Both the position numbers and the translations under genes were made by a program. The notes under the pieces were generated by a model that was not told the origin of the DNA, ran no database searches, and worked only from the letters and a program-made list of their open reading frames with translations. Of a stretch of DNA of 45,011 bases, positions 6,806-45,011 are shown piece after piece; the first letter of the stretch is position 1, and the number at the start of each line of letters is the position of its first letter. This stretch comes from Escherichia phage JLBYU37. The stretch lies in sequence record NC_073054.1. One strand, 5' to 3'.

Positions 6806-6808
6806 TAA

Positions 6809-6838: not shown

Positions 6839-6855
6839 AATATGAGGATTTGACG

Positions 6856-8714: not shown

Positions 8715-8759
8715 TAACGCGTCGGGGCGATATGGCCCCTAACTAAAAAGGACCACATA

Positions 8760-9281: not shown

Positions 9282-9323
9282 TTCTAATCGCGGGCCGAAG
9301 CCCGCATCAATGAGGACCACACA

Positions 9324-9899
9324 ATGTACGGCGAATATGAAATATCAGGTAAACAATTCCACCTGGCGGCAATGATAGCAAGCATCGAGTTTGACCAATG
9401 GCGCTTAAAGTCTGACGCGTGCAAGCAAAGCCGACTCGTCGGTGTGCTGGGTGAAATGTTTGCGGGCATGTACCTTGAAGGGCAAGCAGGCGGGCGCAGT
9501 TGTATACCGCAAGGTTTGCTCATGCGTACCGGCTTGTTTAGTGCCAATACCATTGATCGCGGCGATATCATCATGGTCGGCAAGCGCAAGGTGAAGTCCG
9601 GTCCCGACTTCCGCGAGCATGTGATCGATGCCGTCTGGACCTACGAGGTTAAAGCCACCAGCGGCATTCGCCGCGGACTGGTTGAGGCACGTTGCGCTCG
9701 CGAGTATCTTGCCCGTCGAGTTGCTGGTGTTATCCTGGTGAGCGTAGATTTCGGACAACATAACGCGCACGGCGTGATTGAAGATATCGCGGAACCATAC
9801 GTCATCGTTAATGACTGGCCCTTAGTGGAAGTTGAGGGCAAGGAATATTACGAAAGCCCGCTAGTACGGCGCAAAATGGACTGGGAAAACTCAAACTAG
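9324..9899 (+). CDS. hypothetical protein (191 aa), possible PD-(D/E)XK-fold nuclease
   Basis: AGGA RBS; candidate motif GDIIMVGKRK...WTYEVKATSG (D ... E-x-K). Confidence 0.4.
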   Translation: MYGEYEISGKQFHLAAMIASIEFDQWRLKSDACKQSRLVGVLGEMFAGMYLEGQAGGRSCIPQGLLMRTGLFSANTIDRGDIIMVGKRKVKSGPDFREHVIDAVWTYEVKATSGIRRGLVEARCAREYLARRVAGVILVSVDFGQHNAHGVIEDIAEPYVIVNDWPLVEVEGKEYYESPLVRRKMDWENSN

Positions 9900-9904
9900 A
9901 AAAA

Positions 9905-9930
9905 GGGGCCGCATGGCCCCTTCTATTTAT
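9905..9930. terminator. bidirectional hairpin terminator between convergent genes
   Basis: GGGGCC-gcat-GGCCCC with A run upstream and T-rich run downstream; separates gene 9324-9899 (+) from the tail fibre gene (-). Confidence 0.6.
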
Positions 9931-12344: not shown

Positions 12345-12361
12345 AGCTAAATCCTCATAAA

Positions 12362-12407
12362 TTGGTTGCAATCCTGGCTGAGCGGTGTAATACTAAAACT
12401 CAACCAA
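12362..12407 (+). promoter_or_regulatory. promoter/operator in the divergent region between tail fibre and lipoprotein genes
   Basis: TTGGTTGCA 12362-12370 supplies -35 TTGCAA (12366-12371); TAATAC at 12388-12393; inverted half-site CAACCAA at 12401-12407. Confidence 0.45.
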
Positions 12408-12424
12408 ATATAGGAGATGATACC

Positions 12425-12643
12425 ATGAAAACTTTAATTATGATTTGTGCGGTTCTTTTGTCCGGTTGCGCCGACATGCCCGCTAAAGTCTGCGACGCCA
12501 CATACCAGAATAGCGGCATGGATTATGTGGTCCCTGTGTATGGTGTTGCGGACTTCTCCGGGCATAAAATGCTAAGGGCGGGTTATCCGTTTAGCTTCCA
12601 GTACGTGTCGGTAGACCATTTCAAAAACACCACCTGCGAATAA
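12425..12643 (+). CDS. small lipoprotein (72 aa precursor), candidate receptor-blocking superinfection-exclusion protein
   Basis: AGGAG RBS; signal peptide MKTLIMICAVLLSGC with canonical lipobox; reverse orientation between tail genes. Confidence 0.6.
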   Translation: MKTLIMICAVLLSGCADMPAKVCDATYQNSGMDYVVPVYGVADFSGHKMLRAGYPFSFQYVSVDHFKNTTCE

Positions 12644-12664
12644 TCCCCGAAAGGGGATTTTCTT
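12644..12664 (+). terminator. short hairpin terminator after the lipoprotein gene
   Basis: TCCCC-gaaa-GGGGA followed by TTTTCTT. Confidence 0.5.
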
Positions 12665-13338
12665 CAATCATAATTGGCCGTGTTAATCGCCATAATCGCG
12701 TTGCCGTTGTTAGTATACCCCACCACATCCCCCGTGGCGTTCCCCGACGACGCTGCCGATATACGCGTTCGCGACCCATCAAATCTGGCCCCCGTGTACG
12801 CCGTTACCGATATTACTTGCGGCTGGCCCTGCACAAAAAACCGGATCAGCGTAGACCCCAATATGCCCGGAGCGACGGCGTAGCTGCCATTTAGCGTCTG
12901 GTCAATGTTAATCCCCCCGTTAGCGCCTGGCGATCCGACGGTAACTAAATCGCTTAGTACGCGACTCTCATTAGTAAGCACTAGCTTCCCCGTCTTATCC
13001 CAAATAGCGAAGCCCCACCGCGGAAGGGTCTGTGGGAATATGGCAAAGATGTAAGCCGTCATCGTGAAGCCTTGCCCGAATGGATTGCTGGCGCTCACCT
13101 TCACCACATTACCAACGCGAGAAGACCCTACGACGGTCGGCTGGGCGGTGTGCGTAGTTTTCACAAACGCTATTGCAGGGTAGTCACCACCCAAATTAAT
13201 ATCGGCAGCCGCCGACTGCGCAGTGCCGTTAGCCGAAGACCCAACAACCACACGGCGGAATAGACAAAACGGCGTCGATTCTGGTGTGATAAACGGGTTG
13301 CCGTTTGGTAAGTCAATCAACGCGCCGTAATTAGCCAT
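12664..13338 (-). CDS. tail-associated hypothetical protein (224 aa)
   Basis: Gly/Ser/Thr/Asn-rich beta-type sequence downstream of the gpJ-like gene; start coupled to the upstream stop. Confidence 0.5.
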   Translation of the reverse strand: MANYGALIDLPNGNPFITPESTPFCLFRRVVVGSSANGTAQSAAADINLGGDYPAIAFVKTTHTAQPTVVGSSRVGNVVKVSASNPFGQGFTMTAYIFAIFPQTLPRWGFAIWDKTGKLVLTNESRVLSDLVTVGSPGANGGINIDQTLNGSYAVAPGILGSTLIRFFVQGQPQVISVTAYTGARFDGSRTRISAASSGNATGDVVGYTNNGNAIMAINTANYD

Positions 13339-22569: not shown

Positions 22570-22890
22570 TTATTCAGTCTCAGACGAGGGGAGCCATTGA
22601 CCCCCGTCTAGTCTGAAAGACTGGGGTGCTATCCCGCTGTCCCGATCGGCTGAAAACCGCGGCAGCACTGGCGGGGATGGGGTGCTGTCCCGTTTTGTCC
22701 CGCCCCTTGTTTGTCCCGCTTTCTGTCCCGCTTACTTTATGCAATAAAACTGCATAGGTATGCACATTTACAGGGCGTGACAAAACGGGACGTCCCGCCT
22801 GTCCCGCTTTGAGTTTATGCAATGAAAGTGATTAGATATGCGGTTTTACAGAGGCGGGACAAAACGGGACGTCCCGCCTGTCCCGCTTCA
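22570..22890. repeat. non-coding iteron-rich element, copy 1 (between GT chaperone and tape measure genes)
   Basis: 22570-22756 is ~90% identical to 39025-39211. Multiple GTCCCGC/TGTCCCG half-sites; 31-bp direct repeat GACAAAACGGGACGTCCCGCCTGTCCCGCTT at 22779 and 22857; 12-bp palindrome CGGGACGTCCCG at 22786-22797 and 22865-22876. Confidence 0.75.
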
Positions 22891-32325: not shown

Positions 32326-32336
32326 GGTCGGTTTCC

Positions 32337-33722
32337 TTAGTAGAAATCTACGGTAGGAACAACGGCGATTGGACGAATCACAGGGAACAGGTGCGCAATT
32401 GGATAACCCGCGGCATCGTTCATGTGGTCCACACCGGCGGTTTTATCCGGCTCGCCTTTCTTCAGGTCGTAAACCTGCTGTTCCAGACATTTCGCTAGTG
32501 TAGGGCATTTATCCAGGTTGACAAAATACTGGCGCACGCCCTTCGAGTTGCACATCATCGTATTCATCGCGATCAATCGGTCTTTCACAGGCGGGTTAAC
32601 GCTGTCGTATTCCACCTCGAAGCCCGCATCTTCCAGTTGCGCGATATCGGACGACGAAGCGTTAACCGTTTTGCGGGATTTGCCGCTGCTATCCGGGTAC
32701 ACGACAACACGACCGGCAGCGCAATGATCGGGGTAGCGCTCCTCGATCGCTTCAATCATAGCCGGGGTATCAAACAGGTCCACGAATTCATCCACGGCGT
32801 GAATCTCGTCGCGGAACTCCTTGTTCTCGGTGGTACGCTGCCGTCTTACATACACGACCGCCGCCATTTTCGTGACGTTAAAGTCCATACCGATAATCAG
32901 CGTGTCTTCCGGTTGTACTTCTTCGGTGCTGGCGTTCTCCTCGCGATTAAACATCTTGTATACCGCGCCCGATGTAAGGTTGACAAACAGGCCGTTCAGG
33001 TACGCGTCAATAAGGTTAGCCGGGTACTGACTGCGCAGCGTGTCGATAAAGTCTGCCGGTAAATGGTGGTTGTCGGTGGTCTTCGCCCGGATCAGGCGCT
33101 TTTGGCTATCCTTCTCCACCTCGAAAATCTGGTACATCGCCCGGTAGCCTTCCGGGGTGGACACTATGACGAACTGGCGTACAAAGCCTGCACGCAGACG
33201 ACCGAGCAATTTGTGATACGCCGCCAGCGCAACGTCTTGCTTCGTGGTATCGAATTCATCGGCAACAATCCACGCGGCGTTAACCCCGATAAGGCGGGTG
33301 TAGTTCTCCATCGACTCACAGATAACGCGGGTCCATTTGCCTTTCACAAGCACGTTATAGATCTTGTCCTGCTTATTGAACTTCCACCGGAAGCCTGCCT
33401 CGTCGAATGCCTTCTCCAGTTCCGGATACATGATCTTAACCAGGAGGGGAATAGTCGGTTCTGTAACGATGCCGTCATGACCGGGGTTCAGGGTTAAAAG
33501 CTGGATGACCTTACGCGCAGCGACCCACGACTTTCCACCGCCGAAGCCGGAACACAGGCCGAGGATTTTAGTCTTTGTGTCGCGCAGTAGTTCAACCTGG
33601 TGCGGCAAGCAATCAGGCTGATACAGGCGGACGGCCTGCGCAACGCGTGTCGGTCGCGGCGGTCGATTTCGCTTTGCGATCGCCCGTTCGAGGGCGCGGT
33701 GTTCTGCCGCATAGTTACGCAT
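32337..33722 (-). CDS. terminase large subunit
   Basis: 461 aa; ATPase Walker A-like LGLCSGFGGGKS, Walker B VADEFD, C-terminal nuclease-type acidic residues; stop/start coupled to TerS. Confidence 0.85.
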   Translation of the reverse strand: MRNYAAEHRALERAIAKRNRPPRPTRVAQAVRLYQPDCLPHQVELLRDTKTKILGLCSGFGGGKSWVAARKVIQLLTLNPGHDGIVTEPTIPLLVKIMYPELEKAFDEAGFRWKFNKQDKIYNVLVKGKWTRVICESMENYTRLIGVNAAWIVADEFDTTKQDVALAAYHKLLGRLRAGFVRQFVIVSTPEGYRAMYQIFEVEKDSQKRLIRAKTTDNHHLPADFIDTLRSQYPANLIDAYLNGLFVNLTSGAVYKMFNREENASTEEVQPEDTLIIGMDFNVTKMAAVVYVRRQRTTENKEFRDEIHAVDEFVDLFDTPAMIEAIEERYPDHCAAGRVVVYPDSSGKSRKTVNASSSDIAQLEDAGFEVEYDSVNPPVKDRLIAMNTMMCNSKGVRQYFVNLDKCPTLAKCLEQQVYDLKKGEPDKTAGVDHMNDAAGYPIAHLFPVIRPIAVVPTVDFY

Positions 33723-34294
33723 TATTCACCCTGGCCTTTGCCGGAAGGTTCGACAACTACGTCGCCGTTATCATCTTCGTCGTCATCCAGCGGTACATCG
33801 TCGCGGACGCCGTGGTTCGCTTTAAGCAGGAATGTAGCGAAGCCTGCCGCGATGGTCACACCACCGGCTTCCATCAGGAAAGTTTTCTGCAACTCCATAG
33901 CGTCCGCCATCGCCTCGGCGAACTCCTCATGCGCACGCGCCCAGCGATACAGGCAAGCTACGCCCACGCCGATTTCCGCGGCAAATCGACCGAAGGTTGG
34001 CATTTTGTTGCGAGGGATTACTTGCGCAGCGCCTTTATCGGAGTAGTTTACCTGCCAGGCGTCGGCGTCGGCAAAATAGCGGCGAAGCTGGTCACAGTAA
34101 ACGGATCGGTAGTCCGTAGGGCGTCCGCATTTACCGCCTTTGCGGCGCTTTCCGTACTCGATTTCAGGTCCGAGATTGGTGTGCTCGGTTTGCTCTCCTG
34201 GTTTACGGCGCGGGGTAACTGCGACTCGTCCGTCCAGTTTGGCGCGACGGCCCTTAACTTTAATTTCTGCCATGATATAAGCCCTTTTGTTCAT
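33722..34294 (-). CDS. terminase small subunit
   Basis: 190 aa; HTH-like GRPTDY...FAAEIGVGVACLYRWA; acidic C-terminus; immediately upstream of TerL. Start may be the internal MAEIKVKG. Confidence 0.6.
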   Translation of the reverse strand: MNKRAYIMAEIKVKGRRAKLDGRVAVTPRRKPGEQTEHTNLGPEIEYGKRRKGGKCGRPTDYRSVYCDQLRRYFADADAWQVNYSDKGAAQVIPRNKMPTFGRFAAEIGVGVACLYRWARAHEEFAEAMADAMELQKTFLMEAGGVTIAAGFATFLLKANHGVRDDVPLDDDEDDNGDVVVEPSGKGQGE

Positions 34295-34402
34295 ATGCGC
34301 CGACCATCGGCAACATAGGAGACGGCCCTGCCATCTAAGGGGATTATAACAGGCACAAAAAAGCCCACCAAATCGGCAGGCTGGGAGGCTTATGGGTTGC
34401 CG

Positions 34403-35545
34403 TTACTTCAACATTTCCGGGCTAATGGTTAAGCGCGCTACTTCGCCGTAGTTGGCGCTATAGGTGATGACGTTTGCGCTGCGACCGGACATCCAACCGC
34501 CACGACTGGCGTAGGCGTCTTTCGCTGCGAGCGTCCGGTGCTGTTCAACAATCATGTTGCGGGATTCTACAATCTTCTGGTGGTGCAAGTGGCCTACGTG
34601 CGCGTAGCTGTACTCACTGGATCCGAAAGCCTGTCTGAATTTAGAAATCATAACCTGCTCGATAGCATCGAATCGCGCTTTGTGCCCGTGGTGGAAGAAT
34701 AGCGTGGTCTTACCGTGCTGCACCATTTTGTAGACGTCCGGGGACGTATCCACATCGACGCGCGGCTCGTTCTCGTACAGAGTATTGAACATCTCAGCCA
34801 GCCAAATCATACCCGACTCGTCATGATTTCCCTGGACGATTAGCAGTTTGACTTTGTGGTGTTTTTGCAGCGCCAGTTCGACGACGTTGCGCACCATGCG
34901 AATCATGTATCGGACCAGTTTCTGGTAGCGGGTGTCGGCGTCCAGTATGTGACCACTTGCCGGAGTGACAGCATCGAGGCTATCAAAGTGGGCCATATCA
35001 CCGAGGATATTAATTACGGCAGTGCCTGCGTCCGGGGCGCGTGCGAAGGCTTCGACAAACCAGCGGTAGAACAGGTCTTCGGCGATCGCCATATCCCAGT
35101 CTTCGCCAGTCTCCTCGCCCCATGCCAACATGCCCAGGTGGAAGTCTGACACGGTGTACAGGTTGAGCAAGTCGAGCGCCTGGATCGGTACTGGCGGGGC
35201 GCTAACTGGTGCTGCCGGTGTGATTTCGCTGTTCATACCCTCGACAACGGCGCGCATAGCTTCGAGTTGGCGCTCTTTGTCCTGCTCAGTGATGACCCAC
35301 GACATGACCTCTTCGCCATTGCCGCGCACCAGGGCCGATACGCGCTTAACCCCAAAGCCATCGGCAACGCGCTTGCGGATTACGGCATCGTTGCCGTGTC
35401 CAATGCCTTTTTTCGACAGGCGTGCTTTGCGCATATAAACATTGCGCAGTGCAATGCCGTATTTTTTCGCGATATCTTTCGACGTAGTGCCTGCTTGCAA
35501 TTCTGCGATCAATTGCTCGTCGGTGATTTTAGTTTGCGGGTGCAT
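34403..35545 (-). CDS. HTH domain fused to Mre11/SbcD-type metallophosphoesterase
   Basis: 380 aa; N-terminal TSKDIAKKYGIALRNVYMRKARL; phosphoesterase motifs SDFHLG, GDMAHFD, GNHDE, FFHHGH, GHLHH. Confidence 0.65.
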   Translation of the reverse strand: MHPQTKITDEQLIAELQAGTTSKDIAKKYGIALRNVYMRKARLSKKGIGHGNDAVIRKRVADGFGVKRVSALVRGNGEEVMSWVITEQDKERQLEAMRAVVEGMNSEITPAAPVSAPPVPIQALDLLNLYTVSDFHLGMLAWGEETGEDWDMAIAEDLFYRWFVEAFARAPDAGTAVINILGDMAHFDSLDAVTPASGHILDADTRYQKLVRYMIRMVRNVVELALQKHHKVKLLIVQGNHDESGMIWLAEMFNTLYENEPRVDVDTSPDVYKMVQHGKTTLFFHHGHKARFDAIEQVMISKFRQAFGSSEYSYAHVGHLHHQKIVESRNMIVEQHRTLAAKDAYASRGGWMSGRSANVITYSANYGEVARLTISPEMLK

Positions 35546-35606
35546 ATTAATTTACTTCCAGATTGAGATGACCTGGATGCAATATACCACGGTACTGGGG
35601 CAATAA

Positions 35607-35633
35607 ATAAAAAAGCCCGGAATTAACCGGGCT
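35607..35633 (-). terminator. rho-independent terminator after the lysis cassette
   Basis: Minus strand: AGCCCGG-ttaatt-CCGGGCT followed by U-rich tract. Confidence 0.55.
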
Positions 35634-35640
35634 TGATTGT

Positions 35641-35808
35641 TTACGTCACTGGGTCAGATTCTTCCTGTGGCGGCGGGCTTGGCAGCTTCGCATCGAAGAC
35701 CCCAGCGTGGCTGATAGTGTCGGCGATGATAGCGCGTGCGCCTGGGTCTTCGGTTTTAGCCAGTGCGGCAAGCGCGTCCGCATTATGATCAAGAATACTT
35801 TTTAACAT
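35641..35808 (-). CDS. small hypothetical protein (55 aa) downstream of endolysin
   Basis: ATG 35808 with GAGGTG RBS 7 nt upstream; translation MLKSILDHNADALAALAKTEDPGARAIIADT...; below track threshold. Confidence 0.4.
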   Translation of the reverse strand: MLKSILDHNADALAALAKTEDPGARAIIADTISHAGVFDAKLPSPPPQEESDPVT

Positions 35809-35824
35809 ATTGTGTCACCTCGTA

Positions 35825-36316
35825 TTATGCAGCGTTACGACCGATTCGCTCGGCAACGTCCCACTGCTTACCATCAAACAACGCCTGTCTGCCGATTGCA
35901 CGGCGTACCAGACCCTTCAGCACTTCACCGCCTTGCTTGCGGAACTGCGGCAGAGTAGCACGGACCTTCGCCCAGTCGCCCAGGCGGACCGCATCATCGA
36001 AATCATTCGCGACGTCATCCGGTACGATCGGACCCGGACCGGCGTTGATTACCAGGTCCACCAGCGCGTCGAATTGCGCCTGGTTAATGCTCGGATGTGC
36101 GTATTTGTTCACCCAGTCCTCAGCATACGCCACATCGCGCTTGAGCAGTGCCAGCGCTTCCTCGCGGGTAATGCTTCGAGGCGGATTAGTGCCGGTATGA
36201 CCATAACCCCAAGTGTACAGGCCGCGGGCCTGCTCTTTCTTGGTCGCGAAATACGGCACCGGGCTGAAAGCCTCCCATGCTGCCGTAAATCTCAGACCGT
36301 TGTCACTGAATCGCAT
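35825..36316 (-). CDS. endolysin (phage lysozyme, GH24-like)
   Basis: 163 aa; N-terminal catalytic signature LRFTAAWEAF...YTWGYGHTG; immediately downstream of two holin-like genes. Confidence 0.75.
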   Translation of the reverse strand: MRFSDNGLRFTAAWEAFSPVPYFATKKEQARGLYTWGYGHTGTNPPRSITREEALALLKRDVAYAEDWVNKYAHPSINQAQFDALVDLVINAGPGPIVPDDVANDFDDAVRLGDWAKVRATLPQFRKQGGEVLKGLVRRAIGRQALFDGKQWDVAERIGRNAA

Positions 36317-36548
36317 GTTTTACCCCATTCAAAACAGCATTACGCAGTGTGCGCAATGCAAACAGCCAGATTAACGCGGTCCAGGTGGCGTCAGATACGT
36401 CTCCCGTTTGCAACAGACCGACAATACAGGTCATTGCCGTTAGCAGATATAACACCCGACCGAAGAAGCCATCCTGGACGGACGGCGCATACACGTTAAA
36501 CAGGGACGAAGCCCCTATGATAACAAACAACAGGACGGAGATAATCAT
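36303..36548 (-). CDS. holin/antiholin-like membrane protein
   Basis: 81 aa, about three predicted TM segments; ATGA coupling to the upstream holin. Confidence 0.55.
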   Translation of the reverse strand: MIISVLLFVIIGASSLFNVYAPSVQDGFFGRVLYLLTAMTCIVGLLQTGDVSDATWTALIWLFALRTLRNAVLNGVKHAIQ

Positions 36549-36835
36549 TTTGCGCCCCCCGGAAGTCGGAACGACTCAATAGTCTCCCTGATCCGGGCGG
36601 CTATTGGCATCCAGAAGATTGCAGTTACGAAGCCCAAACCGGCGACAGTGCGCTCGCCAGATAAGCCCGCCCACTCGGCGATAGCTGGCGCACCAAATAT
36701 GGCGCACAGGAAGCCAACTACGACATATAAAACGAAGTTCAACGGCCCTTTCGTTGCCTCGCCATGAATGCGTGCGCCTACGAAGCCACCAGCAAGACAC
36801 GCAAGGGCGAATAACCACTCGTTTAGCTTATCCAT
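36545..36835 (-). CDS. holin-like membrane protein
   Basis: 96 aa, three hydrophobic helices, charged C-terminus; first gene of the lysis cassette. Confidence 0.55.
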   Translation of the reverse strand: MDKLNEWLFALACLAGGFVGARIHGEATKGPLNFVLYVVVGFLCAIFGAPAIAEWAGLSGERTVAGLGFVTAIFWMPIAARIRETIESFRLPGGAK

Positions 36836-36870
36836 AAAAAAGTCCCAGTAAGTTTTATCTCACTGGGACT
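36836..36870 (-). other. stable hairpin plus U-tract abutting the holin start codon
   Basis: Minus strand: AGTCCCAGT-12 nt loop-ACTGGGACT followed by UUUUU and then AUG 36835; no Shine-Dalgarno. Confidence 0.45.
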
Positions 36871-36887
36871 ATATCACGCTTGCATAA

Positions 36888-37187
36888 TTAATCGAAAATG
36901 GACCACTTGCCGACGCCTTTCCACTCCCATCCACTCGACCGGACGGCCTCGAACATCCGGCCCCCTATCATATCCCGATACCACAGCCACCACATGCGCA
37001 ACCTGGTCGGGTGCTCCGTGATTCCACGGCGCTTGTATACCTCGAACGTCATCCGGGTAATGCTGGCAGCTTCCACCGCAGGCCATACCAGGAATACCCA
37101 TATTGCGCCCAGCACTCCCGTAACCAGGCATAACATGCTGACCATACCAAACCAATAAATCACATCATGAATCATAATCTGCCCCAT
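36888..37187 (-). CDS. membrane protein (95-99 aa)
   Basis: N-terminal TM helices (VIYWFGMVSMLCLVTGVLGAIWVFLVW); alternative start ATG 37175 coupled to the upstream small ORF. Confidence 0.45.
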   Translation of the reverse strand: MGQIMIHDVIYWFGMVSMLCLVTGVLGAIWVFLVWPAVEAASITRMTFEVYKRRGITEHPTRLRMWWLWYRDMIGGRMFEAVRSSGWEWKGVGKWSIFD

Positions 37188-37273
37188 AGGTATTTAACCA
37201 GACTAATAACCGACGCCAACAGCACCAGGGCCGCCAGACTACCGCCACATACTACCGCGAAGACGTATAGCAT
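37172..37273 (-). CDS. small single-pass membrane peptide (33 aa)
   Basis: GGAAGGGG RBS 8 nt upstream of ATG 37273; MLYVFAVVCGGSLAALVLLASVISLVKYLWGRL; stop overlaps the next ATG. Confidence 0.4.
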   Translation of the reverse strand: MLYVFAVVCGGSLAALVLLASVISLVKYLWGRL

Positions 37274-37378
37274 CGAATTGCCCCTTCCGGTTTGCCAATA
37301 TGGCGCGCCCATGCACGCGCCACGAAGTAATTGCGAAATACCCGACCGCCTATCTCGAAGCGGTTATGCATCAGCATA

Positions 37379-37549
37379 TCACGAATCACAGCCGACACGG
37401 GATACGACCTCCAGATGTGGGTTATGGCGAGGTGCCCAGTGCACTTGCTTAGTCGCCGTATTACGCAGTTTAACCTGGTAATGGGTCACGGCGACAACCA
37501 GGTACAAATCGCGGGTTAATCTATCCCGCACTAAATCGAATTTATTCAT
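37379..37549 (-). CDS. small basic hypothetical protein (56 aa)
   Basis: ATG overlaps the stop of gene 37546-38100 (ATGA); low-complexity basic sequence; weak support. Confidence 0.3.
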   Translation of the reverse strand: MNKFDLVRDRLTRDLYLVVAVTHYQVKLRNTATKQVHWAPRHNPHLEVVSRVGCDS

Positions 37550-38100
37550 CTCAGAACGACCCCGCGCGGATCGGTAGACTTCATGCTGCCGTCAGGGTAG
37601 ACCAGAAGCACACCAATGCCAAAGCGCTTTGCGTCCAGATTAGCCATGCGCATTGCATCGCATTGCTGGGTAATGGCCTTCCGGGCGTTGTCGATATGCT
37701 CGCGCACCTTGCTCTCGTCGTATTTGGTATATGGGTGCTCCGTACGGGTGATCGCTTTCGCCACGACGCCAGGGCGCTTAGGTGTGTAGTTCCGGCCTAC
37801 GCGGGTGTAATTCACCAGGGTGGCGGGGTTAATAGTCGCGCCTGCCACCAGAGTGCTGTCGATAGTAATCCATTCCGTCCCGACTGACTTCACGACCCAG
37901 GTGTAGTCATTGCCATCACAACGCAGCACATCACCTACTCGTACGTCGTGGTGCACTACCTGCAAATGCTCATGCAGGGTGGCTTTCTTGTACCAGAATA
38001 CGCGGTCGCTGGCTTCATGGTACATGCGCACATAGTTCGGCAGCACTTCGATCGGCTTCAGGATATAGCCATCGCACTTACGGCGGAATAGTAATTTCAT
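37546..38100 (-). CDS. hypothetical protein (184 aa)
   Basis: Well-formed ORF coupled to flanking small ORFs; no motif recognised. Confidence 0.55.
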   Translation of the reverse strand: MKLLFRRKCDGYILKPIEVLPNYVRMYHEASDRVFWYKKATLHEHLQVVHHDVRVGDVLRCDGNDYTWVVKSVGTEWITIDSTLVAGATINPATLVNYTRVGRNYTPKRPGVVAKAITRTEHPYTKYDESKVREHIDNARKAITQQCDAMRMANLDAKRFGIGVLLVYPDGSMKSTDPRGVVLR

Positions 38101-38231
38101 TGTTCTGTCTCCTCGATCTCGTCAATTGCTTTTGTGTCGCCATCGCATACCGTAGCGATGCCGTTTTGTTCGTAGTCAAGTACGCACATATGCAGGTCGA
38201 TAAACGCCTGCGATATTCCGTCTAAGAACAT
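38097..38231 (-). CDS. small acidic hypothetical protein (44 aa)
   Basis: GGGAGA RBS 7 nt upstream of ATG 38231; stop coupled by ATGA to gene 37546-38100; overlaps the end of ORF 38222-38497. Confidence 0.3.
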   Translation of the reverse strand: MFLDGISQAFIDLHMCVLDYEQNGIATVCDGDTKAIDEIEETEQ

Positions 38232-38497
38232 TTGCTCAGTCTCCCGTGTTTGCCCACCCGCTCAATGGCGGGCTTCTGGCGTAATGTAATACGTATTCCC
38301 ATTGGTTGCAAGGAAGTCCGCACCCTGAAATCGTGTTGTGCTGCGAACTGGTGTAAGTAGCGAGTCTGCGTCAACGGCTTTACGTCGTCGCGATAGCACC
38401 AGAATACCGATTCGCCCTCAACTGCATTCTCAGCCCATATTCGTATGCAATGCAGGGGAATATGCCACGAAAGCTGTTTTGCTCGCCTACGGCCCAT
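38222..38497 (-). CDS. hypothetical protein (91 aa)
   Basis: AAGGGG RBS directly after the stop of gene 38507-38812. Confidence 0.4.
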   Translation of the reverse strand: MGRRRAKQLSWHIPLHCIRIWAENAVEGESVFWCYRDDVKPLTQTRYLHQFAAQHDFRVRTSLQPMGIRITLRQKPAIERVGKHGRLSKCS

Positions 38498-38506
38498 TTT
38501 GGCCCC

Positions 38507-38812
38507 TTATTTCGCAAGCTGGGTGAATAGCTCACGCTGGGCTTTAATCCGGGCGACGTTTGTCACTGCCTTATCGCCAATACCGAAGCGATATGCCAGG
38601 CGCTCGCGGGAGAATGCACGCGCGTATTCGTGGATTGCCTTCGCCAGCGTCTTCAGTTCGTCAAGGCTGGCATCCATGCCGTCGAGCGCATACATGATTG
38701 CCTGCTGGGCCAGTATTACTACATGCGCCGCGCGGTCTGCGTTGCCGTTCAGAGCCTTCGCTTCGTCCAGCTTCGCCAGGGCCATTGCGTAATTCCAGAT
38801 TAATGCTCTCAT
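38507..38812 (-). CDS. hypothetical helical protein (101 aa), first gene of the minus-strand operon
   Basis: GAGGA RBS; preceded by the motif-bearing promoter at 38824-38880. Confidence 0.5.
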   Translation of the reverse strand: MRALIWNYAMALAKLDEAKALNGNADRAAHVVILAQQAIMYALDGMDASLDELKTLAKAIHEYARAFSRERLAYRFGIGDKAVTNVARIKAQRELFTQLAK

Positions 38813-38823
38813 CGTTCAGTCCT

Positions 38824-38880
38824 CATGTTGGTGTGCAACCAATATAGCAAGGTGCCAGGGCGAATGCAACCAATATTAAT
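38824..38880 (-). promoter_or_regulatory. sigma70-like promoter with two motif copies (minus strand)
   Basis: On minus strand TTGCAT (plus 38864-38869) N17 TATATT (plus 38841-38846) followed by GGTTGCACACCAAC, same cassette as at 28470-28489; TGCAACCAA at 38834-38842 and 38865-38873. Confidence 0.55.
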
Positions 38881-39024
38881 CACGCGCATGAAAAAGTTGA
38901 TCGCTATCTGCTGTGACTGCAAACTGCGTTTTTCACTCCGCATAATGCAACCCGCATTGGTTGCCTAGTTCATCGACGACCGCTCTTCGCATCATGCTGC
39001 CGTGTATTTTGCAATCTCCAGATT

Positions 39025-39211
39025 TTATTCAGTCTCAGACGAGGGGGGCCACTGACCCCCGTCTAGTCTGAAAGACTGGGGTGCTGTCCCGCTGTCCCGC
39101 TCCTCTGGAAGCCGCGTCATCCGGGGCGGGACGGGGGTGCTGTCCCGCTTTGTCCCGCCCCTTGTTTGTCCCGCTTTTTGTCCCGCTTACTTTATGCAAT
39201 AAAACTGCATA
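39025..39211. repeat. non-coding iteron-rich element, copy 2 (beside the primase-helicase gene)
   Basis: ~90% identical to 22570-22756; GTCCCGC half-sites at 10-16 bp spacing; inverted GCGGGAC...GTCCCGC pair; followed by A/T-rich stretch 39190-39235. Confidence 0.75.
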
Positions 39212-39271
39212 ACTATTCATTATATCTACACTACACGGCAACCAATGCGATATAGATTTAATGCTCAATCT

Positions 39272-39352
39272 GGCAACCAATACGCGCACAAATTAATCGT
39301 TTAGCGATATGGGAATTCCCATATCGGCAACCAATACGCGCAAATTTTAATC
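39272..39352 (+). repeat. two ~28 bp direct repeats GGCAACCAATACGCGCA(C)AAATT(T)TAATC
   Basis: Copies at 39272-39299 and 39326-39352, 54 bp apart; second copy overlaps the primase-helicase stop codon. Confidence 0.6.
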
Positions 39353-41611
39353 TTTTAAGTCATCATCGGTCGCCGAAAGCGTGATGGGTATATTCGTTTT
39401 TATGACAATATTCGACGACCCATAGATGGCTCCGGTGTGTGGGTCTGTATAAAAACCGAGTACGCCGCGCTCGACCATATCGTCGATTGCCTTCGTCGAT
39501 GTGCCACCTTTCGCAAGCCCAGCCTGGCGGACAATTGCCGATTTACTGAATCCGGTATGGTCCGGGTTATCTTCCATCAGTTTTTCCAGCGCTGCATAAA
39601 GCACTTTCTCTTTTTCGTTGCGCGGTCCTGCTGCGTTCTCTTCCTTAACTGCTGCCTTGCCAGCGGCCTTCGCCTGTTCGATGGCGAACGGTGCCAGGGC
39701 GACCGGTACGAGGTAAAGAGTCTCGTCGCGTGGCGTGGAGGCAATTGGCTTGACGTCCCAACCGGCAACTACATCGCCGAAGTCCGGCCCGGTGCTGGTG
39801 GACTGGTGTGCCTCGAACGCCTCGGACTTGCGGAGATCCACCTTAACCTTGCACTTGAGCAGGACGAAGCCGCGCGGCGCTTGCTTAATGCCGTTACGTG
39901 CCTTCTCATGATACAGGTTCAATTGGCCTGGCTGGTTGTCGTCTGGTTGCTCCAGGAAGAACGCGGAATCGACAGCACCATGCAGCGCGCCGGACCCACG
40001 GGGAGATCTGCTGCCGTTTGCACCCTTCGCCGGGTGGTGGATGACTCCCGCACTTCCGCCGGTCTTCTCCGCGATGGCCTTCAGCGCTTTGACCACTTCA
40101 CCCATATCGCTGGCGTTGTTCTCGTCGAACGGTTTAGCATCCGCGGACCGCAACGCAACAGTCTGGTTGAGTGAGTCGAACGCCACCAGGCCAACCGGTT
40201 CGCCGTTAGCGGTGCGGTTGATAAAGCTGATAACTTCGCGCAAGCCTGATTTGCTGGTGATATCCCAGCCGCGTGACTGCAGGTCTATAATGTGCAGCTT
40301 GTCCAGGTCGTGCTCATATTTAATCTGCAATGCTTCTTTACGCTGGTTGGAGGCTTCGCCACCTTCCGCGTCAAAATAGAAGCAATGAGACTGGACGACC
40401 TTCGCACCGCCAAACGGAATACCCGCGGCAACTGCGCCCATCTGGCCCAGCACGTAGAAAGACTTACCGATATTCGACTCACCCGCCATATACCAGGTCG
40501 ATTTAAAGTTAATCAACCCCTCGATGATCGGGTCGTGCTTGCTGAACAGCGCAACCGGCTCGTTATCCAGATCCGCATCGGTGCACACGCCGTATTCTTC
40601 GCCGTCGCCAACCGCATCAACAATATGTTCATATAAGGATTCGACTTCCTCGTCGTCCAGCCCCGGAAGGATGGCGGCGATTTGCTTACGGGACATGTTG
40701 TGCGGTTCGACGTTCAGGTGGTCCGGGATCCCGATAAGACGTAGCGCCAGGTGCTGGTGTCTGTTCAGTTCCGAGCAACACTCGTTGCCGGTGTGCATAC
40801 ACTTGAAACGGATCTCGCCATCCTTGACCATGATAGCCGTCGACCCTTCGCCGCTGTGCAGATGTTCGTTCGGGCACGGCACTTCATAACCGCGACCAGA
40901 AGATAACTCCTCGAATCCGGCCTGGAAGCACCAGTCCAGAATGCCGTCTGCCACTGCGTCGTCGCCCTGGGTAAGCTCGCGGCGTACTTCCTCTTTTTCC
41001 ATTCCCAGCTTATCAGCCAGGCGAAGCAGACGACGGACGCGGGCACGTTTGCCGTAGTGACACTTAACAACCGATTGCTGGTGAGGCAGGTACATAAGGC
41101 GGTTTGTGTCTTTCGTGCAGTCGTCGAAGTCCACATCTGACAGGCCCAGTTGGTGCAATAGCGCATACTGGACACGGCCCAGGTCTTCAGCCGGTACAGG
41201 CTTGTCGGTCAACACAAGGAAGCGAGCGCAACGCGTTCCACCTTTCAGTGGGTGACGGTCGCCGGTTGTGGTGTGGAAGACGTGCTCCAGTCCCGCGTCG
41301 ATGAACGCCTTACGGCAGCGGCGTAGGGTGCGGGTGTCAGTACGGTCAATATCGAAGAACAGGATCGAGCGGTCCACCGCACTGGTCTTGCGACGTAAGC
41401 CGTCACTGGTATAAGCCACAATACCATCGGCCTTACGCTTGCGGCGTGCATACTCCGCTTTATCTTCCGTCTTGTTGATATGCACCGAGGATATTTCTTT
41501 CGCATCATTAATAAATTCGAAAAACTCATCGGTGGTCATCTGGAAGTTTTCCGCCCTGGCTTTTTCGCCTTTTTTAGCGGGTTTTGTTACAGCGAATTTA
41601 ATCAAGCTCAT
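39347..41611 (-). CDS. primase-helicase (N-terminal primase-polymerase-like domain, zinc-binding region, C-terminal P-loop NTPase)
   Basis: 754 aa; ILFFDIDR acidic motif, Cys/His cluster CPNEHLH...CMHTGNEC, Walker A GESNIGKS, Walker B-like LVAFD. Confidence 0.8.
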   Translation of the reverse strand: MSLIKFAVTKPAKKGEKARAENFQMTTDEFFEFINDAKEISSVHINKTEDKAEYARRKRKADGIVAYTSDGLRRKTSAVDRSILFFDIDRTDTRTLRRCRKAFIDAGLEHVFHTTTGDRHPLKGGTRCARFLVLTDKPVPAEDLGRVQYALLHQLGLSDVDFDDCTKDTNRLMYLPHQQSVVKCHYGKRARVRRLLRLADKLGMEKEEVRRELTQGDDAVADGILDWCFQAGFEELSSGRGYEVPCPNEHLHSGEGSTAIMVKDGEIRFKCMHTGNECCSELNRHQHLALRLIGIPDHLNVEPHNMSRKQIAAILPGLDDEEVESLYEHIVDAVGDGEEYGVCTDADLDNEPVALFSKHDPIIEGLINFKSTWYMAGESNIGKSFYVLGQMGAVAAGIPFGGAKVVQSHCFYFDAEGGEASNQRKEALQIKYEHDLDKLHIIDLQSRGWDITSKSGLREVISFINRTANGEPVGLVAFDSLNQTVALRSADAKPFDENNASDMGEVVKALKAIAEKTGGSAGVIHHPAKGANGSRSPRGSGALHGAVDSAFFLEQPDDNQPGQLNLYHEKARNGIKQAPRGFVLLKCKVKVDLRKSEAFEAHQSTSTGPDFGDVVAGWDVKPIASTPRDETLYLVPVALAPFAIEQAKAAGKAAVKEENAAGPRNEKEKVLYAALEKLMEDNPDHTGFSKSAIVRQAGLAKGGTSTKAIDDMVERGVLGFYTDPHTGAIYGSSNIVIKTNIPITLSATDDDLKD

Positions 41612-41621
41612 TGCCGTGGCC

Positions 41622-41951
41622 TTACTTAGAAGTTTTATTATTGCGTACCCAGGAGCGCACTGTGCTCTGATTAATTCCGGTCAACTCGGCAATCATCGCC
41701 CAGGATTTGCCCTCGGCGCGCAAACGGATAACCTGTTTTTTGTATTCTTCCATTTCTTCATTGTGCTTTTGCAGCTTGCTTGCTGCCGTGCCGTTGAGCA
41801 ATTCCAGCCTGGCGCGTAATTCTTTTTCGACACTGCGCAGTCGTTCGATTTCAAATAATACAGCCCCCACGGCATCGGTATATGCCCATGACCGGCTTGT
41901 CTCACTGCTAACAGTCTTCGTTAACATTTCGATTGCGTCGTTTACATTCAT
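41622..41951 (-). CDS. small HTH DNA-binding regulator (109 aa)
   Basis: C-terminal helix-turn-helix SWAMIAELTGINQSTVRSWVRNN; N-terminal coiled coil; GGGGG RBS; divergent from the early promoter region. Confidence 0.55.
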   Translation of the reverse strand: MNVNDAIEMLTKTVSSETSRSWAYTDAVGAVLFEIERLRSVEKELRARLELLNGTAASKLQKHNEEMEEYKKQVIRLRAEGKSWAMIAELTGINQSTVRSWVRNNKTSK

Positions 41952-41965
41952 TGTTCTGCCCCCAG

Positions 41966-41980
41966 TTGGTTAATGACCAA
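41966..41980. promoter_or_regulatory. palindromic operator TTGGT-taatg-ACCAA upstream of the HTH regulator gene
   Basis: Inverted repeat 15-29 nt upstream of the regulator start codon; same TTGGT half-site as the dispersed motif. Confidence 0.4.
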
Positions 41981-42024
41981 TGAAACTACACCTAAAACCG
42001 CAGGGTGTCAACTCCTCTGGAATA

Positions 42025-42053
42025 TTGAAACGGGCGCGCACGCGTGTAATAAT
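42025..42053 (+). promoter_or_regulatory. sigma70-like promoter TTGAAA-N16/17-TAATAA(T)
   Basis: TTGAAA at 42025-42030, TG then TAATAAT at 42045-42053; transcripts would run into the terminator at 42083-42118. Confidence 0.5.
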
Positions 42054-42082
42054 ACTCCCGTCTCATTGTCTCTTATTGGTTA

Positions 42083-42118
42083 GCGCCGTCGCATTTTGCT
42101 TCGGCGCTTTTTTTTTTT
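42083..42118 (+). terminator. strong rho-independent terminator
   Basis: GCGCCG-13 nt loop-CGGCGC followed by 11 consecutive T. Confidence 0.7.
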
Positions 42119-42129
42119 GAAATTAGTTG

Positions 42130-42158
42130 TTGACTCCCTTCTGCAACCAATCTAATAT
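42130..42158 (+). promoter_or_regulatory. near-consensus sigma70 promoter of the plus-strand early operon
   Basis: TTGACT (42130-42135) N17 TAATAT (42153-42158); TGCAACCAA motif at 42142-42150 inside the spacer. Confidence 0.6.
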
Positions 42159-42218
42159 TCACTCCGTCGACAGGGCATACCGCCCGGACACCTAAACTTA
42201 ACCAATCGGAGATATACC

Positions 42219-42737
42219 ATGTTTGAGCAAATCGTAAACCTGATCACTCGCGGCGTAGTAGCACTGGAAACCATTGCAAAGCATTATGAAACCGTTGGCG
42301 CTGCCGTTGGTAAGCAGGAAGACAAGAAGCCGTCTAAGGCCAAAAAAGAAGTTGTCGAAGATGGCGACGACGACGCCGAAGACGAAAAACCGGCTAAAGC
42401 TAAAAAAGCACCGGCGAAGGGTAAGGCCAAAAAAGAAGTCGTAGAAGATGACGACGACGAAGACGCCGAAGACGAAAAACCGGCTAAGGCCAAAAAAGCA
42501 CCGGCGAAAGGCAAAGGTAAGAAAGATGCCGATCCGCTGGCGGAGATGCGCGACGAAATCAAACAGTATGCCGCGATTATCGCCGGTGGTGATGACGACG
42601 ATGCGAACGACGAATTCGACGACCTGCTGGAAGCGTTCGAGATCAAATCAATCGCCAAGCTGGAAGATGACGACGTCGAAGACTTCCACAAAGATTTAAA
42701 AGAAATCGTCGAGACTTATTTCGAACTGGAAGACTAA
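42219..42737 (+). CDS. highly acidic protein with tandem charged repeats (172 aa)
   Basis: First gene after the early promoter; two ~90 bp tandem repeats encoding KKEVVEDxDDDAEDEKPAKAKKAPAKGK; acidic C-terminal helical region. Confidence 0.6.
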   Translation: MFEQIVNLITRGVVALETIAKHYETVGAAVGKQEDKKPSKAKKEVVEDGDDDAEDEKPAKAKKAPAKGKAKKEVVEDDDDEDAEDEKPAKAKKAPAKGKGKKDADPLAEMRDEIKQYAAIIAGGDDDDANDEFDDLLEAFEIKSIAKLEDDDVEDFHKDLKEIVETYFELED

Positions 42738-42741
42738 TATC

Positions 42742-42867
42742 ATGGACTATGAAATGAGAATCATGCTCGATTTCATAGCAGAAAATTGGGCGGCATTCAC
42801 CGCCTTCTGCGAAGAAAGAGGCGACGACCCGGACGAGGTTTATAAACAACTCGGCGGTGAAGATTAA
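42742..42867 (+). CDS. small hypothetical protein (41 aa)
   Basis: MDYEMRIMLDFIAENWAAFTAFCEERGDDPDEVYKQLGGED; followed by a terminator; weak RBS. Confidence 0.3.
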   Translation: MDYEMRIMLDFIAENWAAFTAFCEERGDDPDEVYKQLGGED

Positions 42868-42873
42868 TATTAT

Positions 42874-42902
42874 CCGGCCCGCATATTAGCGGGCCTCTTT
42901 TT
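42874..42902 (+). terminator. rho-independent terminator
   Basis: CCGGCCCGC-atatta-GCGGGCC followed by TCTTTTT. Confidence 0.65.
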
Positions 42903-42915
42903 AGAGGACGAGACA

Positions 42916-43167
42916 ATGGCACGATTCACGCTAATCGAGGCGGTGGATTCCCGCGACCAGCGCCCGTACTATTGGCTATTCGAACGCATCGGCAGCTTTC
43001 AATCCCGCGTTGCCGTAATAGATAAACGCCGTAACACGCCCGCGCAAATTAAGCGCACCACCTTTACTAATCCCGACTTTTATATTTGGGCGGATTCAAA
43101 TCTGGAATATGTTCGCTTCGCAGTTGCATCCGAAGCAAAAACAATCGACCGCTGGGAGACAAAATAA
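42916..43167 (+). CDS. hypothetical protein (83 aa)
   Basis: ATG 42916; stop overlaps the next ATG (TAATG); no motif recognised. Confidence 0.45.
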   Translation: MARFTLIEAVDSRDQRPYYWLFERIGSFQSRVAVIDKRRNTPAQIKRTTFTNPDFYIWADSNLEYVRFAVASEAKTIDRWETK

Positions 43168-43346
43168 TGAAATTCTTCGTCATGGCAACTTGCCACGAAT
43201 TAAACGATCACACTTCTTTTATTGTTGAAAACACCAACGCAAGCAATTGCTTTGTGGACGCGCAAAATGAAGTTAAGCGCCGAGTCGAAAAAGCGGGCCT
43301 GGCTAATGTGAAATATGTAATTGTCCAGTTTACACGGGTGGAATAA
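43167..43346 (+). CDS. hypothetical protein (59 aa)
   Basis: ATG 43167 in frame with track ORF 43086-43346; coupled on both sides. Confidence 0.4.
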   Translation: MKFFVMATCHELNDHTSFIVENTNASNCFVDAQNEVKRRVEKAGLANVKYVIVQFTRVE

Positions 43347-44776
43347 TGGCGATTAAACCAAAACGTAAAACGCAATCCGGTAGCAACACGGAACACTCAT
43401 TACTCGGGCCGTCCGGTGCTAAAAAATGGATGGGTTGCCCTGCCGCCCTGGTGGTGGAAAAAGATATCCCGAACGAATCCGGGCAAGCGGCGATTAACGG
43501 TACGAGTATGCACACCGTATCAGAGGTCGTGCTAAACCGCATTATCGCCGGTGAGAAGCTGATAACCGCGAAGACGTATAAAGGGTGCTACGTCGAGAAC
43601 GAAGGCAAGGGGCCAGTAAAGGCCCACCCGAAAGCACCGAAAGGCGGCGTACTGGTCAACGACGACATGGTGAAACAGTGCGACGCGTACATCGACCACT
43701 GGCGACCGCTCCTCGAAGTGGCGGAGTTTGTTCAGCTTGAGATGCGCGCCGATCTGACCCGCGTCCTTCACTCAGGCTTCGAGATCGACGGCAACCTGGT
43801 TAAGACGTTCGGTACTGCCGATATGGTTATGGTCATGAAGAAGACCGACGGCACGTACATGCTGATTGTTGGCGACCTGAAGACGGGACGACATAAGGTC
43901 GAGGCGAAAGAAAACAAACAGCTTATGTTGTACGCGCTCGGCCTGCTGCGCAAGCTGAAAACTATGTACGACATTACGACCGTGCGCCTGGTTATCTTCC
44001 AGCCGTATTGCGGCGGGGCGTCGGAGTGGGATATTTCGGTAGAAGCCCTGGAGATATTCGCGAAGTTTGCGTCCAAGCGTGCTATCGCCGCCCTGGAAGC
44101 GTACGCCCGCGGCAAAAAGGGACTCACCCGTGCCGACTTCAGACCGAGCGTTGATGCGTGTCAGTGGTGCCGATTTGCGGATCAGTGTAGCGCCCGCGCT
44201 AAGGCCGCAATCGACACGATGACCCCACCAACGGCAACAGACGAAGACCTGGGCGACGACGTGAGTATTGCGACAGAGGAAGAATGCGCCAATCACGATC
44301 GCAATATGACCCGCGAAGCCCGCAAAGCGGCACGACGTGCGAAGCGTAGTAAGAAAGAAGCGGCACCAGGCGCTATGAGCGCGGCGGAACTGCGCAAGGC
44401 ATATGAGGGTCTAGACGCAATGCGCCAGCACATCAAGGCTATCGAGTCCGCGGTATTCAAGGCCGTAATGGCGGGTGATGGCGAATCGCTGGGCCTCAAG
44501 ATGGTTGCCGGTAAGGAAGGGATTCGCAAGTGGGCGGACGAACGCGAAGTGATTGAAATCTTCACTAAGGCCCGGATCAAGCGCGATGTGATGTACAAAG
44601 AAACATTACTCAGTCCTACCGATGCCGAGAAGGTACTGAAGGACGAGAAGCCGAAAGTATGGGCGAAGCTGTGTGATAAAATCACGCGCGCACCGGCTAA
44701 ACCGGTATTAGCGCCAATAGACGACCCGCGCCCTGCGTGGTCTGAAGCTACTGACGAGGACTTAAGCAATGAATAA
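43346..44776 (+). CDS. Cas4-like PD-(D/E)XK nuclease (DUF2800-type)
   Basis: 476 aa; central D...E-x-K-type core (IVGDLKTGRHKVE...QLMLYALGL) and cysteine cluster CQWCRFADQC; usual partner of the DUF2815/polymerase/helicase module. Confidence 0.65.
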   Translation: MAIKPKRKTQSGSNTEHSLLGPSGAKKWMGCPAALVVEKDIPNESGQAAINGTSMHTVSEVVLNRIIAGEKLITAKTYKGCYVENEGKGPVKAHPKAPKGGVLVNDDMVKQCDAYIDHWRPLLEVAEFVQLEMRADLTRVLHSGFEIDGNLVKTFGTADMVMVMKKTDGTYMLIVGDLKTGRHKVEAKENKQLMLYALGLLRKLKTMYDITTVRLVIFQPYCGGASEWDISVEALEIFAKFASKRAIAALEAYARGKKGLTRADFRPSVDACQWCRFADQCSARAKAAIDTMTPPTATDEDLGDDVSIATEEECANHDRNMTREARKAARRAKRSKKEAAPGAMSAAELRKAYEGLDAMRQHIKAIESAVFKAVMAGDGESLGLKMVAGKEGIRKWADEREVIEIFTKARIKRDVMYKETLLSPTDAEKVLKDEKPKVWAKLCDKITRAPAKPVLAPIDDPRPAWSEATDEDLSNE

Positions 44777-45011
44777 AGTATTCGCAATCTTATTGATGTT
44801 TTTGCTCGGCGCGCTGGGTTTTATTCTGCATTGCGTACAAGGCGTATTAATGGTGGCGTGGATGATTCGACATCCGACCCGCTGGCTGGACGACGGTTAT
44901 AGCGACGCTGCCGTCGACTGGGTGGAGAGGAATATCGACCGCCCGCCGTTAAGCTGGATCGAGAACGCTACCAACTACGTGACCAGAAATCTTTTTAATA
45001 AAAGTGCTTGA
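44769..45011 (+). CDS. small membrane protein (80 aa)
   Basis: Hydrophobic helix pair AILLMFLLGALGFILHC...LMVAWMI; ends at the last base of the window. Confidence 0.45.
   Translation: MNKVFAILLMFLLGALGFILHCVQGVLMVAWMIRHPTRWLDDGYSDAAVDWVERNIDRPPLSWIENATNYVTRNLFNKSA

Follow-up and report, generated by a model that had tools for sequence, protein, structure and literature searches.

The 45,011-bp window, which is the whole stretch of DNA that was analyzed, is in all likelihood the complete genome of a virulent Dhillonvirus siphophage of E. coli that has a circular map and whose linear record ends are not the ends of the virion DNA. Judged from the sequence, the phage is an ordinary HK578/SO-1-like E. 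coli phage, and its record starts at a non-physical point that splits an operon of replication genes, as is to be expected in this familiar and mostly headful-packaging group. The original prediction that a complete genome had been opened at a non-physical point was borne out by the finding that bases 45011 and 1 are adjacent in related phages.

Genome identity and collinearity with related phages

The window is a Dhillonvirus genome that matched approximately 150 GenBank phages at 90–97% nucleotide identity in comparisons that covered both ends and the 23-kb right half of the window. Dhillonvirus members (HK578/SO-1-like) of Escherichia or Shigella account for nearly all of the matching phages. 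The usual criterion for a phage genus is nucleotide similarity of ~70% across the genome. The window and the Dhillonvirus genomes share both the nucleotide similarity and the common gene order that characterize the genus, and the gene content and length of the window agree with those of complete relatives of 41.8–46 kb. No record identical to the window was present in the collection compared. The G+C content of the window is 54.4%, and scans of the window revealed neither tRNA genes nor any match to Rfam. The SO-1 phage cluster is credited to Grose & Casjens 2014 in a description of related phages (PMC9022532).

When the whole window was compared with Opt212 by BLAST, 43,948 of the 45,011 nt aligned at 84–99% identity and the two genomes were collinear once rotated. 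Positions 1–32325 of the window paired with 12903–44488 of Opt212, and positions 32326–45011 paired with 1–12902, such that the break of each record falls within the other record. The right end of the window was 97% identical to Opt-212. As the two sequences are collinear after rotation, both records are rotations of one circular map and the window is complete.

The window ends are contiguous in related genomes

Matching phage records were probed with a 614-nt sequence in which the window ends were joined, the junction falling after probe base 301. The probe was covered over at least 80% of its length in one place in 143 of the 153 matching records. Among the matches listed (60 of the 153), the aligned stretch also crossed the junction in those records with lower coverage. 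In HK578, rolling, LM40P1, and Gluttony the 80-aa ORF that precedes the junction is replaced by other sequence, but the alignment still spans the junction. The record of Envy begins ~200 nt upstream of this point. Window positions 45011/1 correspond to 12902/12903 in Opt212, 32064/32063 in Teewinot, 29616/29615 in Pride, and 33093/33094 in Zumzum, and the joined junction aligned without gaps with four relatives. An IMG/VR contig of 44,762 bp also includes the exact 42-nt junction sequence away from the contig ends, and aligns contiguously with both window ends at 1822/1823.

The window lacks a terminal direct repeat, its end and start do not overlap (0-nt exact overlap), and none of the direct-repeat families in the window pairs the two ends. 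As in a rotated record, the final base leads directly into the first, without loss or duplication of sequence, and a terminal repeat is absent. On sequence grounds the ends of the window are ends of the record, and not ends of the DNA.

Genes at the two window ends form one replication and recombination module

The genes that flank the junction, and the primase-helicase gene that lies further upstream, are as follows.

39347–41611, minus strand: replicative primase-helicase, with homologues annotated in Zumzum, Opt212, UDS3lw, and SO-1
43346–44776, plus strand: DUF2800/PD-(D/E)XK exonuclease of 476 aa (Pfam DUF2800, E 1.9e-66; PDDEXK_1, E 2e-8)
44769–45011, plus strand: 80-aa ORF with a hydrophobic N-terminus (PHROG 11211, function unknown, 1.1e-52)
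91–873, plus strand: DUF2815/Enc34-type SSB (Pfam Enc34_ssDNA-bd, 2.9e-31; PHROG 112)
932–1102, plus strand: conserved 56-aa ORF of unknown function (PHROG 10102, 1.7e-42)
1099–3390, plus strand: family A DNA polymerase (Pfam DNA_pol_A), annotated as DNA polymerase I in relatives
3583–3861, plus strand: VRR-NUC nuclease/resolvase (Pfam VRR_NUC, 7.6e-6)
4252–5766, plus strand: SNF2-family DNA helicase (Pfam SNF2-rel_dom, 4.6e-11)

A Cas4-like nuclease had been proposed at the right end of the window, and a DUF2800/PD-(D/E)XK protein with Cas4-type motifs is present there as the first large gene of the recombination/replication operon. The protein matches PHROG 69 ("exonuclease"), and its translation contains the complete catalytic set of RecB/Cas4-type motifs: GTAD159, with the catalytic D159, D177-L-K179, and Q192-LML-Y196 (QxxxY). 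A four-cysteine set, comprising an N-terminal Cys (C31) and C272-x2-C275-x5-C281, is also present in the sequence. The Pfam Cas4 family did not match the nuclease at E ≤ 0.01, the only matches being to DUF2800 and PDDEXK_1. Thus, "Cas4-like" is fair as a description of motifs, whereas the family that it matches is DUF2800 and the protein is not assigned to the Cas4 family. A sequence search of solved structures (PDB) produced no significant match for the nuclease, and an exact-protein lookup in the contig collection returned no contig, so the genome is absent from that collection. The 80-aa ORF that follows is the last in the window and terminates at the final base, as had been noted originally, with its TGA stop codon at 45009–45011. 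A CDS is annotated where this ORF sits in Zumzum, Opt212, and UDS3lw.

The SSB-like, polymerase, VRR-NUC, and helicase genes anticipated at the left end were all detected by Pfam. The SSB, which carries an acidic/basic repeat tail (repeat families D2 and D4), is predicted to be a T7 gp2.5-like ssDNA-binding and annealing protein, and the label of its PHROG is "Gp2.5-like ssDNA binding and annealing protein." The VRR-NUC gene is annotated as an endonuclease or a Holliday junction resolvase in relatives, in which the start of the helicase gene is placed slightly later. The primase-helicase gene and the nuclease operon are transcribed in divergent directions.

With the window ends joined, the DUF2800, DUF2815, PolA, VRR_NUC, and SNF2 genes follow each other in this order on one strand. 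The assertion that these genes are normally contiguous holds within Dhillonvirus and in more distant carriers of the module. The order of nuclease, small ORF, SSB, polymerase, resolvase, and helicase genes is uninterrupted in the dhillonviruses Zumzum, Opt212, and UDS3lw, and the order of nuclease, SSB, polymerase, resolvase, and helicase genes recurs, again uninterrupted, in Jerseyvirus AG11, Burkholderia phage AH2, and Chivirus KFS-SE1, in all three of which a divergently transcribed primase lies upstream of the module. In APSE-1, the nuclease, SSB, polymerase, and endonuclease genes likewise follow one another in the stretch that was compared. The nucleases of these phages are identical to that of the window at ~47% (AG11), 24% (AH2), 26% (KFS-SE1), and 31% (APSE-1) of positions. 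As Chiviruses and AH2 belong to other families, possession of the module says nothing about the mode of packaging.

The junction falls within a conserved promoter-like site

Across the joined ends, the sequence is AAAAGTGCTTGA up to the break and CCGCTTAGGCGCAACCAAGTAGATTAGCAACCAAGCC beyond it. The elements recognized across the join are as follows.

45008–45011, plus strand: TTGA, the first part of the −35 hexamer, in the gapless alignment of the joined ends with four relatives
1–34, plus strand: remainder of the promoter-like site, with CC of the −35 hexamer (1–2), a 17-nt spacer (3–19), and the −10 hexamer TAGATT (20–25)
11–18 and 27–34, plus strand: two copies of the over-represented motif GCAACCAA

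TTGACC and TAGATT separated by 17 nt constitute a σ70-like site that is located 65 nt upstream of the SSB start codon, and the break in the window sits between TTGA and CC of the −35 hexamer. The four aligned relatives all retain TTGACC and both flanking GCAACCAA motifs without change, and their −10 hexamer is either TAGATT or TAAATT. A promoter scan of Zumzum placed TTGACC-17-TAAATT exactly at the junction position, one site being found where ~1 was expected by chance, which makes the scan weak evidence by itself. An RpoD promoter is annotated at the equivalent place in Jerseyvirus AG11, in the interval that separates the small ORF from the DUF2815 gene. A physical DNA end within the promoter-like site is very unlikely.

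The opening point of the record was probably chosen

The suggestion that the genome had been opened at an arbitrary point stood in part: the point is non-physical, but it is probably not arbitrary, as the cut was made exactly at a stop codon and gene boundary. Based on the ~58–71 genes annotated in the complete records of relatives, a random cut would be expected to fall exactly on a gene boundary with a chance of ~0.15% (~1 in 700). The exact position of the cut at the stop codon implies that the opening point was probably selected by an annotator or a tool rather than random. The openings of related records vary. ZCEC10, ZCEC11, and ZCEC12, each of 44,776 bp, have three different openings in two orientations, and the SO-1 record is marked as circular. 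Several relatives have records that open just ahead of the gene for the terminase small subunit, and other records open next to the repeat regions A/B. Clustered record starts that correspond to window positions ~22570, 38913, and 39219 were considered as physical ends and set aside: assembler breaks at the boundaries of the 195-nt repeat, or copying from a reference record, would be at least as likely as explanations of these starts.

Terminase proteins and packaging mode

The terminase genes of the window are encoded on the minus strand.

32337–33722, minus strand: terminase large subunit TerL (Pfam Terminase_6N/6C)
33722–34294, minus strand: terminase small subunit TerS (PHROG 3064, "terminase," 3.8e-73)

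TerL is 100% identical to TerL of Teewinot and ~40% identical to the proteins of Jerseyvirus and Kagunavirus. In a published tree, TerL of Dhillonvirus K19 groups with the Jerseyvirus and P1 proteins (PMC10783031). TerS matched the P22 GP3_package model at 22.5 bits and the Sf6_terminase model at 19.9 bits, which are below the respective cut-offs of 29.4 and 27. Sequence searches of solved structures (PDB) gave no significant match for TerL or TerS, and the NCBIfam search gave solely a sub-threshold match to a PBSX terminase.

The split replication module had been considered originally to be consistent with headful packaging rather than with fixed ends. Headful packaging is not readable from the sequence, and the split module shows only that the record is permuted. 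The step from split module to headful packaging is weak because assemblies of cos or terminal-repeat genomes can also circularize, and a circular map alone cannot distinguish pac from cos or terminal-repeat packaging. The relatives are more informative. Opt-212 and four SO-1-like relatives were assembled as circles, and PhageTerm predicted headful packaging for Opt-212 (PMC9022532). UDS3lw was classified as headful with a pac site (PMC13348001), and BF9 as headful of the P1 type (PMC10059673). Among five bov Dhillonviruses, four were classified as "circular permutated" and bov25_1D as "Fixed" (PMC8407724). Jerseyvirus K47 is headful according to PhageTerm, its restriction profile, and PFGE (PMC10783031). 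The literature search found no account of terminal redundancy in SSL-2009a, and the slur and Korf papers contain no explicit description of Dhillonvirus termini. Based on the PhageTerm calls for relatives and the affinity of the terminase, the packaging of the window genome is most probably headful and not by fixed ends.

These observations suggest the following model. The nuclease, small ORF, SSB, PolA, VRR-NUC, and SNF2 helicase genes constitute one rightward block for replication and recombination. The record was opened right after the stop codon of the small ORF, thereby parting the nuclease gene and this ORF from the SSB-PolA-VRR-NUC-SNF2 helicase genes and bisecting the −35 hexamer of the promoter-like site that precedes the SSB gene. 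By analogy with the relatives, the virion most likely contains linear DNA with terminal redundancy and circular permutation. Processive headful cutting of concatemers, begun at a pac site by the TerS/TerL proteins encoded at 32337–34294, would generate this DNA.

Alternative interpretations of the window ends

The window could end at true physical termini that lie in the interval from the 80-aa ORF to the SSB gene, namely cos ends or a direct terminal repeat that the assembler had collapsed. The clean end of the record at a stop codon is the sole point in favor of this interpretation, which is extremely improbable. A terminal repeat or overlap is absent, and the cut splits a conserved promoter-like site within a conserved block of genes. 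Moreover, among the matches listed (of 153), no record ends at the junction position, and no published Dhillonvirus terminus maps to the junction. True termini at the window ends were rejected because the promoter-like site is split, the operon is conserved, and repeats are lacking. It is just as hard to credit that the window is a fragment of a larger replicon in which the split reflects truncation and not rotation: nothing was found in favor of this proposal, and the alignment with Opt212 completes the circle, with no sequence absent from the junction or present there twice.

A different proposal is that the genome has fixed cohesive ends elsewhere and that the window represents a cos phage in rotated form. 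The candidate site is the following.

6802–6811, plus strand: ATCTTAAGGG, the 10-nt 5′ cos end reported for EE09; exact match, found once in the window

PhageTerm analysis of Dhillonvirus EE09 returned a COS 5′ type with a 10-nt end, ATCTTAAGGG (PMC10673088), and the EE09 record opens on this sequence and runs around to a point just short of it. The "Fixed" call for bov25_1D also counts toward cohesive ends (PMC8407724); the libraries in that study were prepared with Nextera XT, and libraries of the Nextera XT type prevent the recovery of termini (PMC13108922). Against this proposal, the seven other PhageTerm calls for Dhillonviruses are headful or permuted, and TerL probably belongs to a clade linked to headful phages. 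A 1-kb probe across 6802–6811 produced no match that touches a record end there among the 60 matches listed, and those alignments that terminate at probe position 528 do so in the interior of records, which points to mosaic boundaries. The ATCTTAAGGG site is positioned directly 3′ of a TTGGTTGC pair and just 5′ of a terminator-like hairpin, and given these features a pile-up of reads at ATCTTAAGGG could have another cause. EE09-type cohesive ends in a rotated record are unlikely. It is similarly doubtful that the virion DNA of some Dhillonviruses has a site-specific end or nick at ATCTTAAGGG (6802–6811), which if true would make Dhillonvirus a mixed or mis-typed packager. Equally doubtful is a role in packaging initiation or in replication for the repeat-rich regions A/B, beside which many records open. 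Neither idea bears on the ends of the window. Even if the genome were of the cos type, the window ends would not be termini, as the EE09 site is far from them. The preferred interpretation remains that of a complete circular map in a rotated record.

Significance and comparison with known systems

The window is a rotated record of a genome from a known phage genus. For phage biology the conclusions offer nothing new, as both circular assemblies and headful packaging have been described for Dhillonvirus in earlier publications. The value is one of bookkeeping only. For annotation and comparison the genome should be handled as a circular map in which the nuclease gene and small ORF at the right end run on into the SSB-polymerase operon of the left end. 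Annotators should take care to include the promoter-like site that the break divides and should not describe the record ends as termini.

The headful phages P22, Sf6, SPP1, and P1, which package from pac sites, are expected to share with the window a circular map and terminally redundant, permuted virion DNA. The TerL type (Terminase_6N/6C) is common to the window and this group, whereas the TerS matches to the P22 gp3 and Sf6 models lie below the Pfam cut-offs and, in contrast to these phages, the window has no defined pac site. Nucleases of the Cas4/AddB/RecB families have the D, (D/E)xK, and QxxxY motifs and the cysteine pattern in common with the window nuclease. The latter differs from Cas4 in that it has no CRISPR context and ~200 extra C-terminal residues, and any iron-sulfur binding and activity of the protein are putative. 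The adjoining exonuclease and SSB genes of the window resemble the arrangement at ORF6 of Enterobacter phage Enc34, which encodes a T7 gp2.5-like SSB; the window SSB, whose function is presumed by homology, differs from the Enc34 and T7 gp2.5 proteins in carrying a long acidic/basic repeat tail.

The headful pac siphophages of Salmonella in the genus Jerseyvirus (Guernseyvirinae; for example, AG11 and Kenya-K47) share with the window a block that consists of primase-helicase, nuclease, small ORF, promoter, DUF2815 SSB, PolA, resolvase, and helicase, but constitute a different genus whose relationship to the window is seen at the protein level only. The closest counterparts are the Dhillonvirus genomes themselves, including HK578, SO-1, EP23, Opt212, Teewinot, UDS3lw, and ~150 others, in which nucleotide identity to the window is 92–98% and the gene order is that of the window around the whole circle. 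The junction sequence and terminase are also common to these genomes and the window, which differs in its opening point from every Dhillonvirus relative among the matches listed.

An 8-mer element at sigma70-like sites

Together with its complement GCAACCAA, the 8-mer TTGGTTGC was observed 20 times in the window compared to 1.9 occurrences expected, and counts in the related Dhillonvirus genomes Opt212 and UDS3lw were 20 and 21, respectively.

Positions of TTGGTTGC/GCAACCAA copies in the window
11-18, 27-34, 3838, 6774, 6791, 8687, 8699, 12362, 28461, 28474
38835, 38866, 38957, 39238, 39273, 39327, 42143, plus three more

The copies are arranged mostly as intergenic pairs with a spacing of 13-17 nt, and they overlap sigma70-like sites at the -35 motif, the spacer or the -10 motif. 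This overlap is exemplified by TTGCAT-17-TATATT upstream of the genes that start near 28510 (+) and 38812 (-), and by the sigma70-like site that is cut by the window junction where base 45011 meets base 1. The element looks like an operator, or a promoter element, belonging to a phage regulon. To our knowledge, it has no previous description.

The 6.8-kb site and shared homology breaks

The 10-nt cos-end sequence reported for the relative EE09 was found in the window at 6802-6811, immediately after a TTGGTTGC pair and shortly ahead of a hairpin (6809-6838) that resembles a terminator and carries a T-run. When a 1-kb probe spanning this site and a 614-nt probe spanning the junction were matched to phage records, homology with many relatives ended sharply at two common points, namely window 6834 (position 528 of the 1-kb probe) and ~44987-44996 (positions 277-286 of the junction probe). 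These shared breaks in sequence homology indicate mosaic module boundaries. In HK578, Gluttony, rolling and others, unrelated sequence takes the place of the genes that follow the terminator-like hairpin at 6.8 kb and of the 80-aa ORF at 44769-45011 (+).

Acidic/basic repeats

The C-terminal tail of the SSB protein (window 639-857) consists of acidic/basic repeats of the (D/E)n-KPRK/KPAK type. A tandem 90-nt repeat (42318-42521) of the same type is located within a second ORF.

42219-42737, 172-aa ORF, PHROG 3127, function unknown

Direct repeats and clustered ends of Dhillonvirus records

Many GenBank Dhillonvirus records start or end at the equivalents of window positions ~22569/22570, 38913/38914 and 39219/39220.

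Record breaks by window position
22570, ~9 records in both orientations: Maverick, welsh, Sponge, BEK2-2, slur06, PNS1, Kente, AV129, Lzu_P3
38913, 5 records: PTXU06, UDS3lw, BMA1, Pandora71, Zar3M
39219, 2 records: HH3, PEC9

Two of these three points coincide with boundaries of a 195-nt direct repeat. The clustering is most simply explained by assemblies that broke at repeat edges or by records that were copied from a reference. A pac site may also lie near 38.9 kb, given that UDS3lw was processed with PhageTerm. Separately, the Dhillonvirus record PQ843332.1 (Escherichia phage P-GXEC-L2P5) is 88,607 bp, ~2x the unit genome, and contains the queried region twice; this suggests that a circular or concatemeric map was assembled as a dimer or with read-through.

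Direct repeats in the window
22570-22764 and 39025-39219, 195-nt direct repeat, copies 89% identical and 16.4 kb apart
22774-22809 and 22853-22888, further repeat pair in the same region

In each 195-nt copy, a strong hairpin (CAGTCTCAGACGAGGGG...CCCCCGTCTAGTCTG) precedes a cluster of GTCCCGC iterons, and the two clusters together account for 15 of the 20 occurrences of this 7-mer in the genome. One repeat copy lies inside an apparently non-coding stretch of ~390 nt upstream of the tape-measure gene, and the other is just downstream of the primase-helicase gene. Part of the element is present as a tandem duplication in UDS3lw. The copy downstream of the primase-helicase gene is already annotated in the SO-1 record as 'region B', a set of direct and inverted repeats and palindromes resembling 'region A'.
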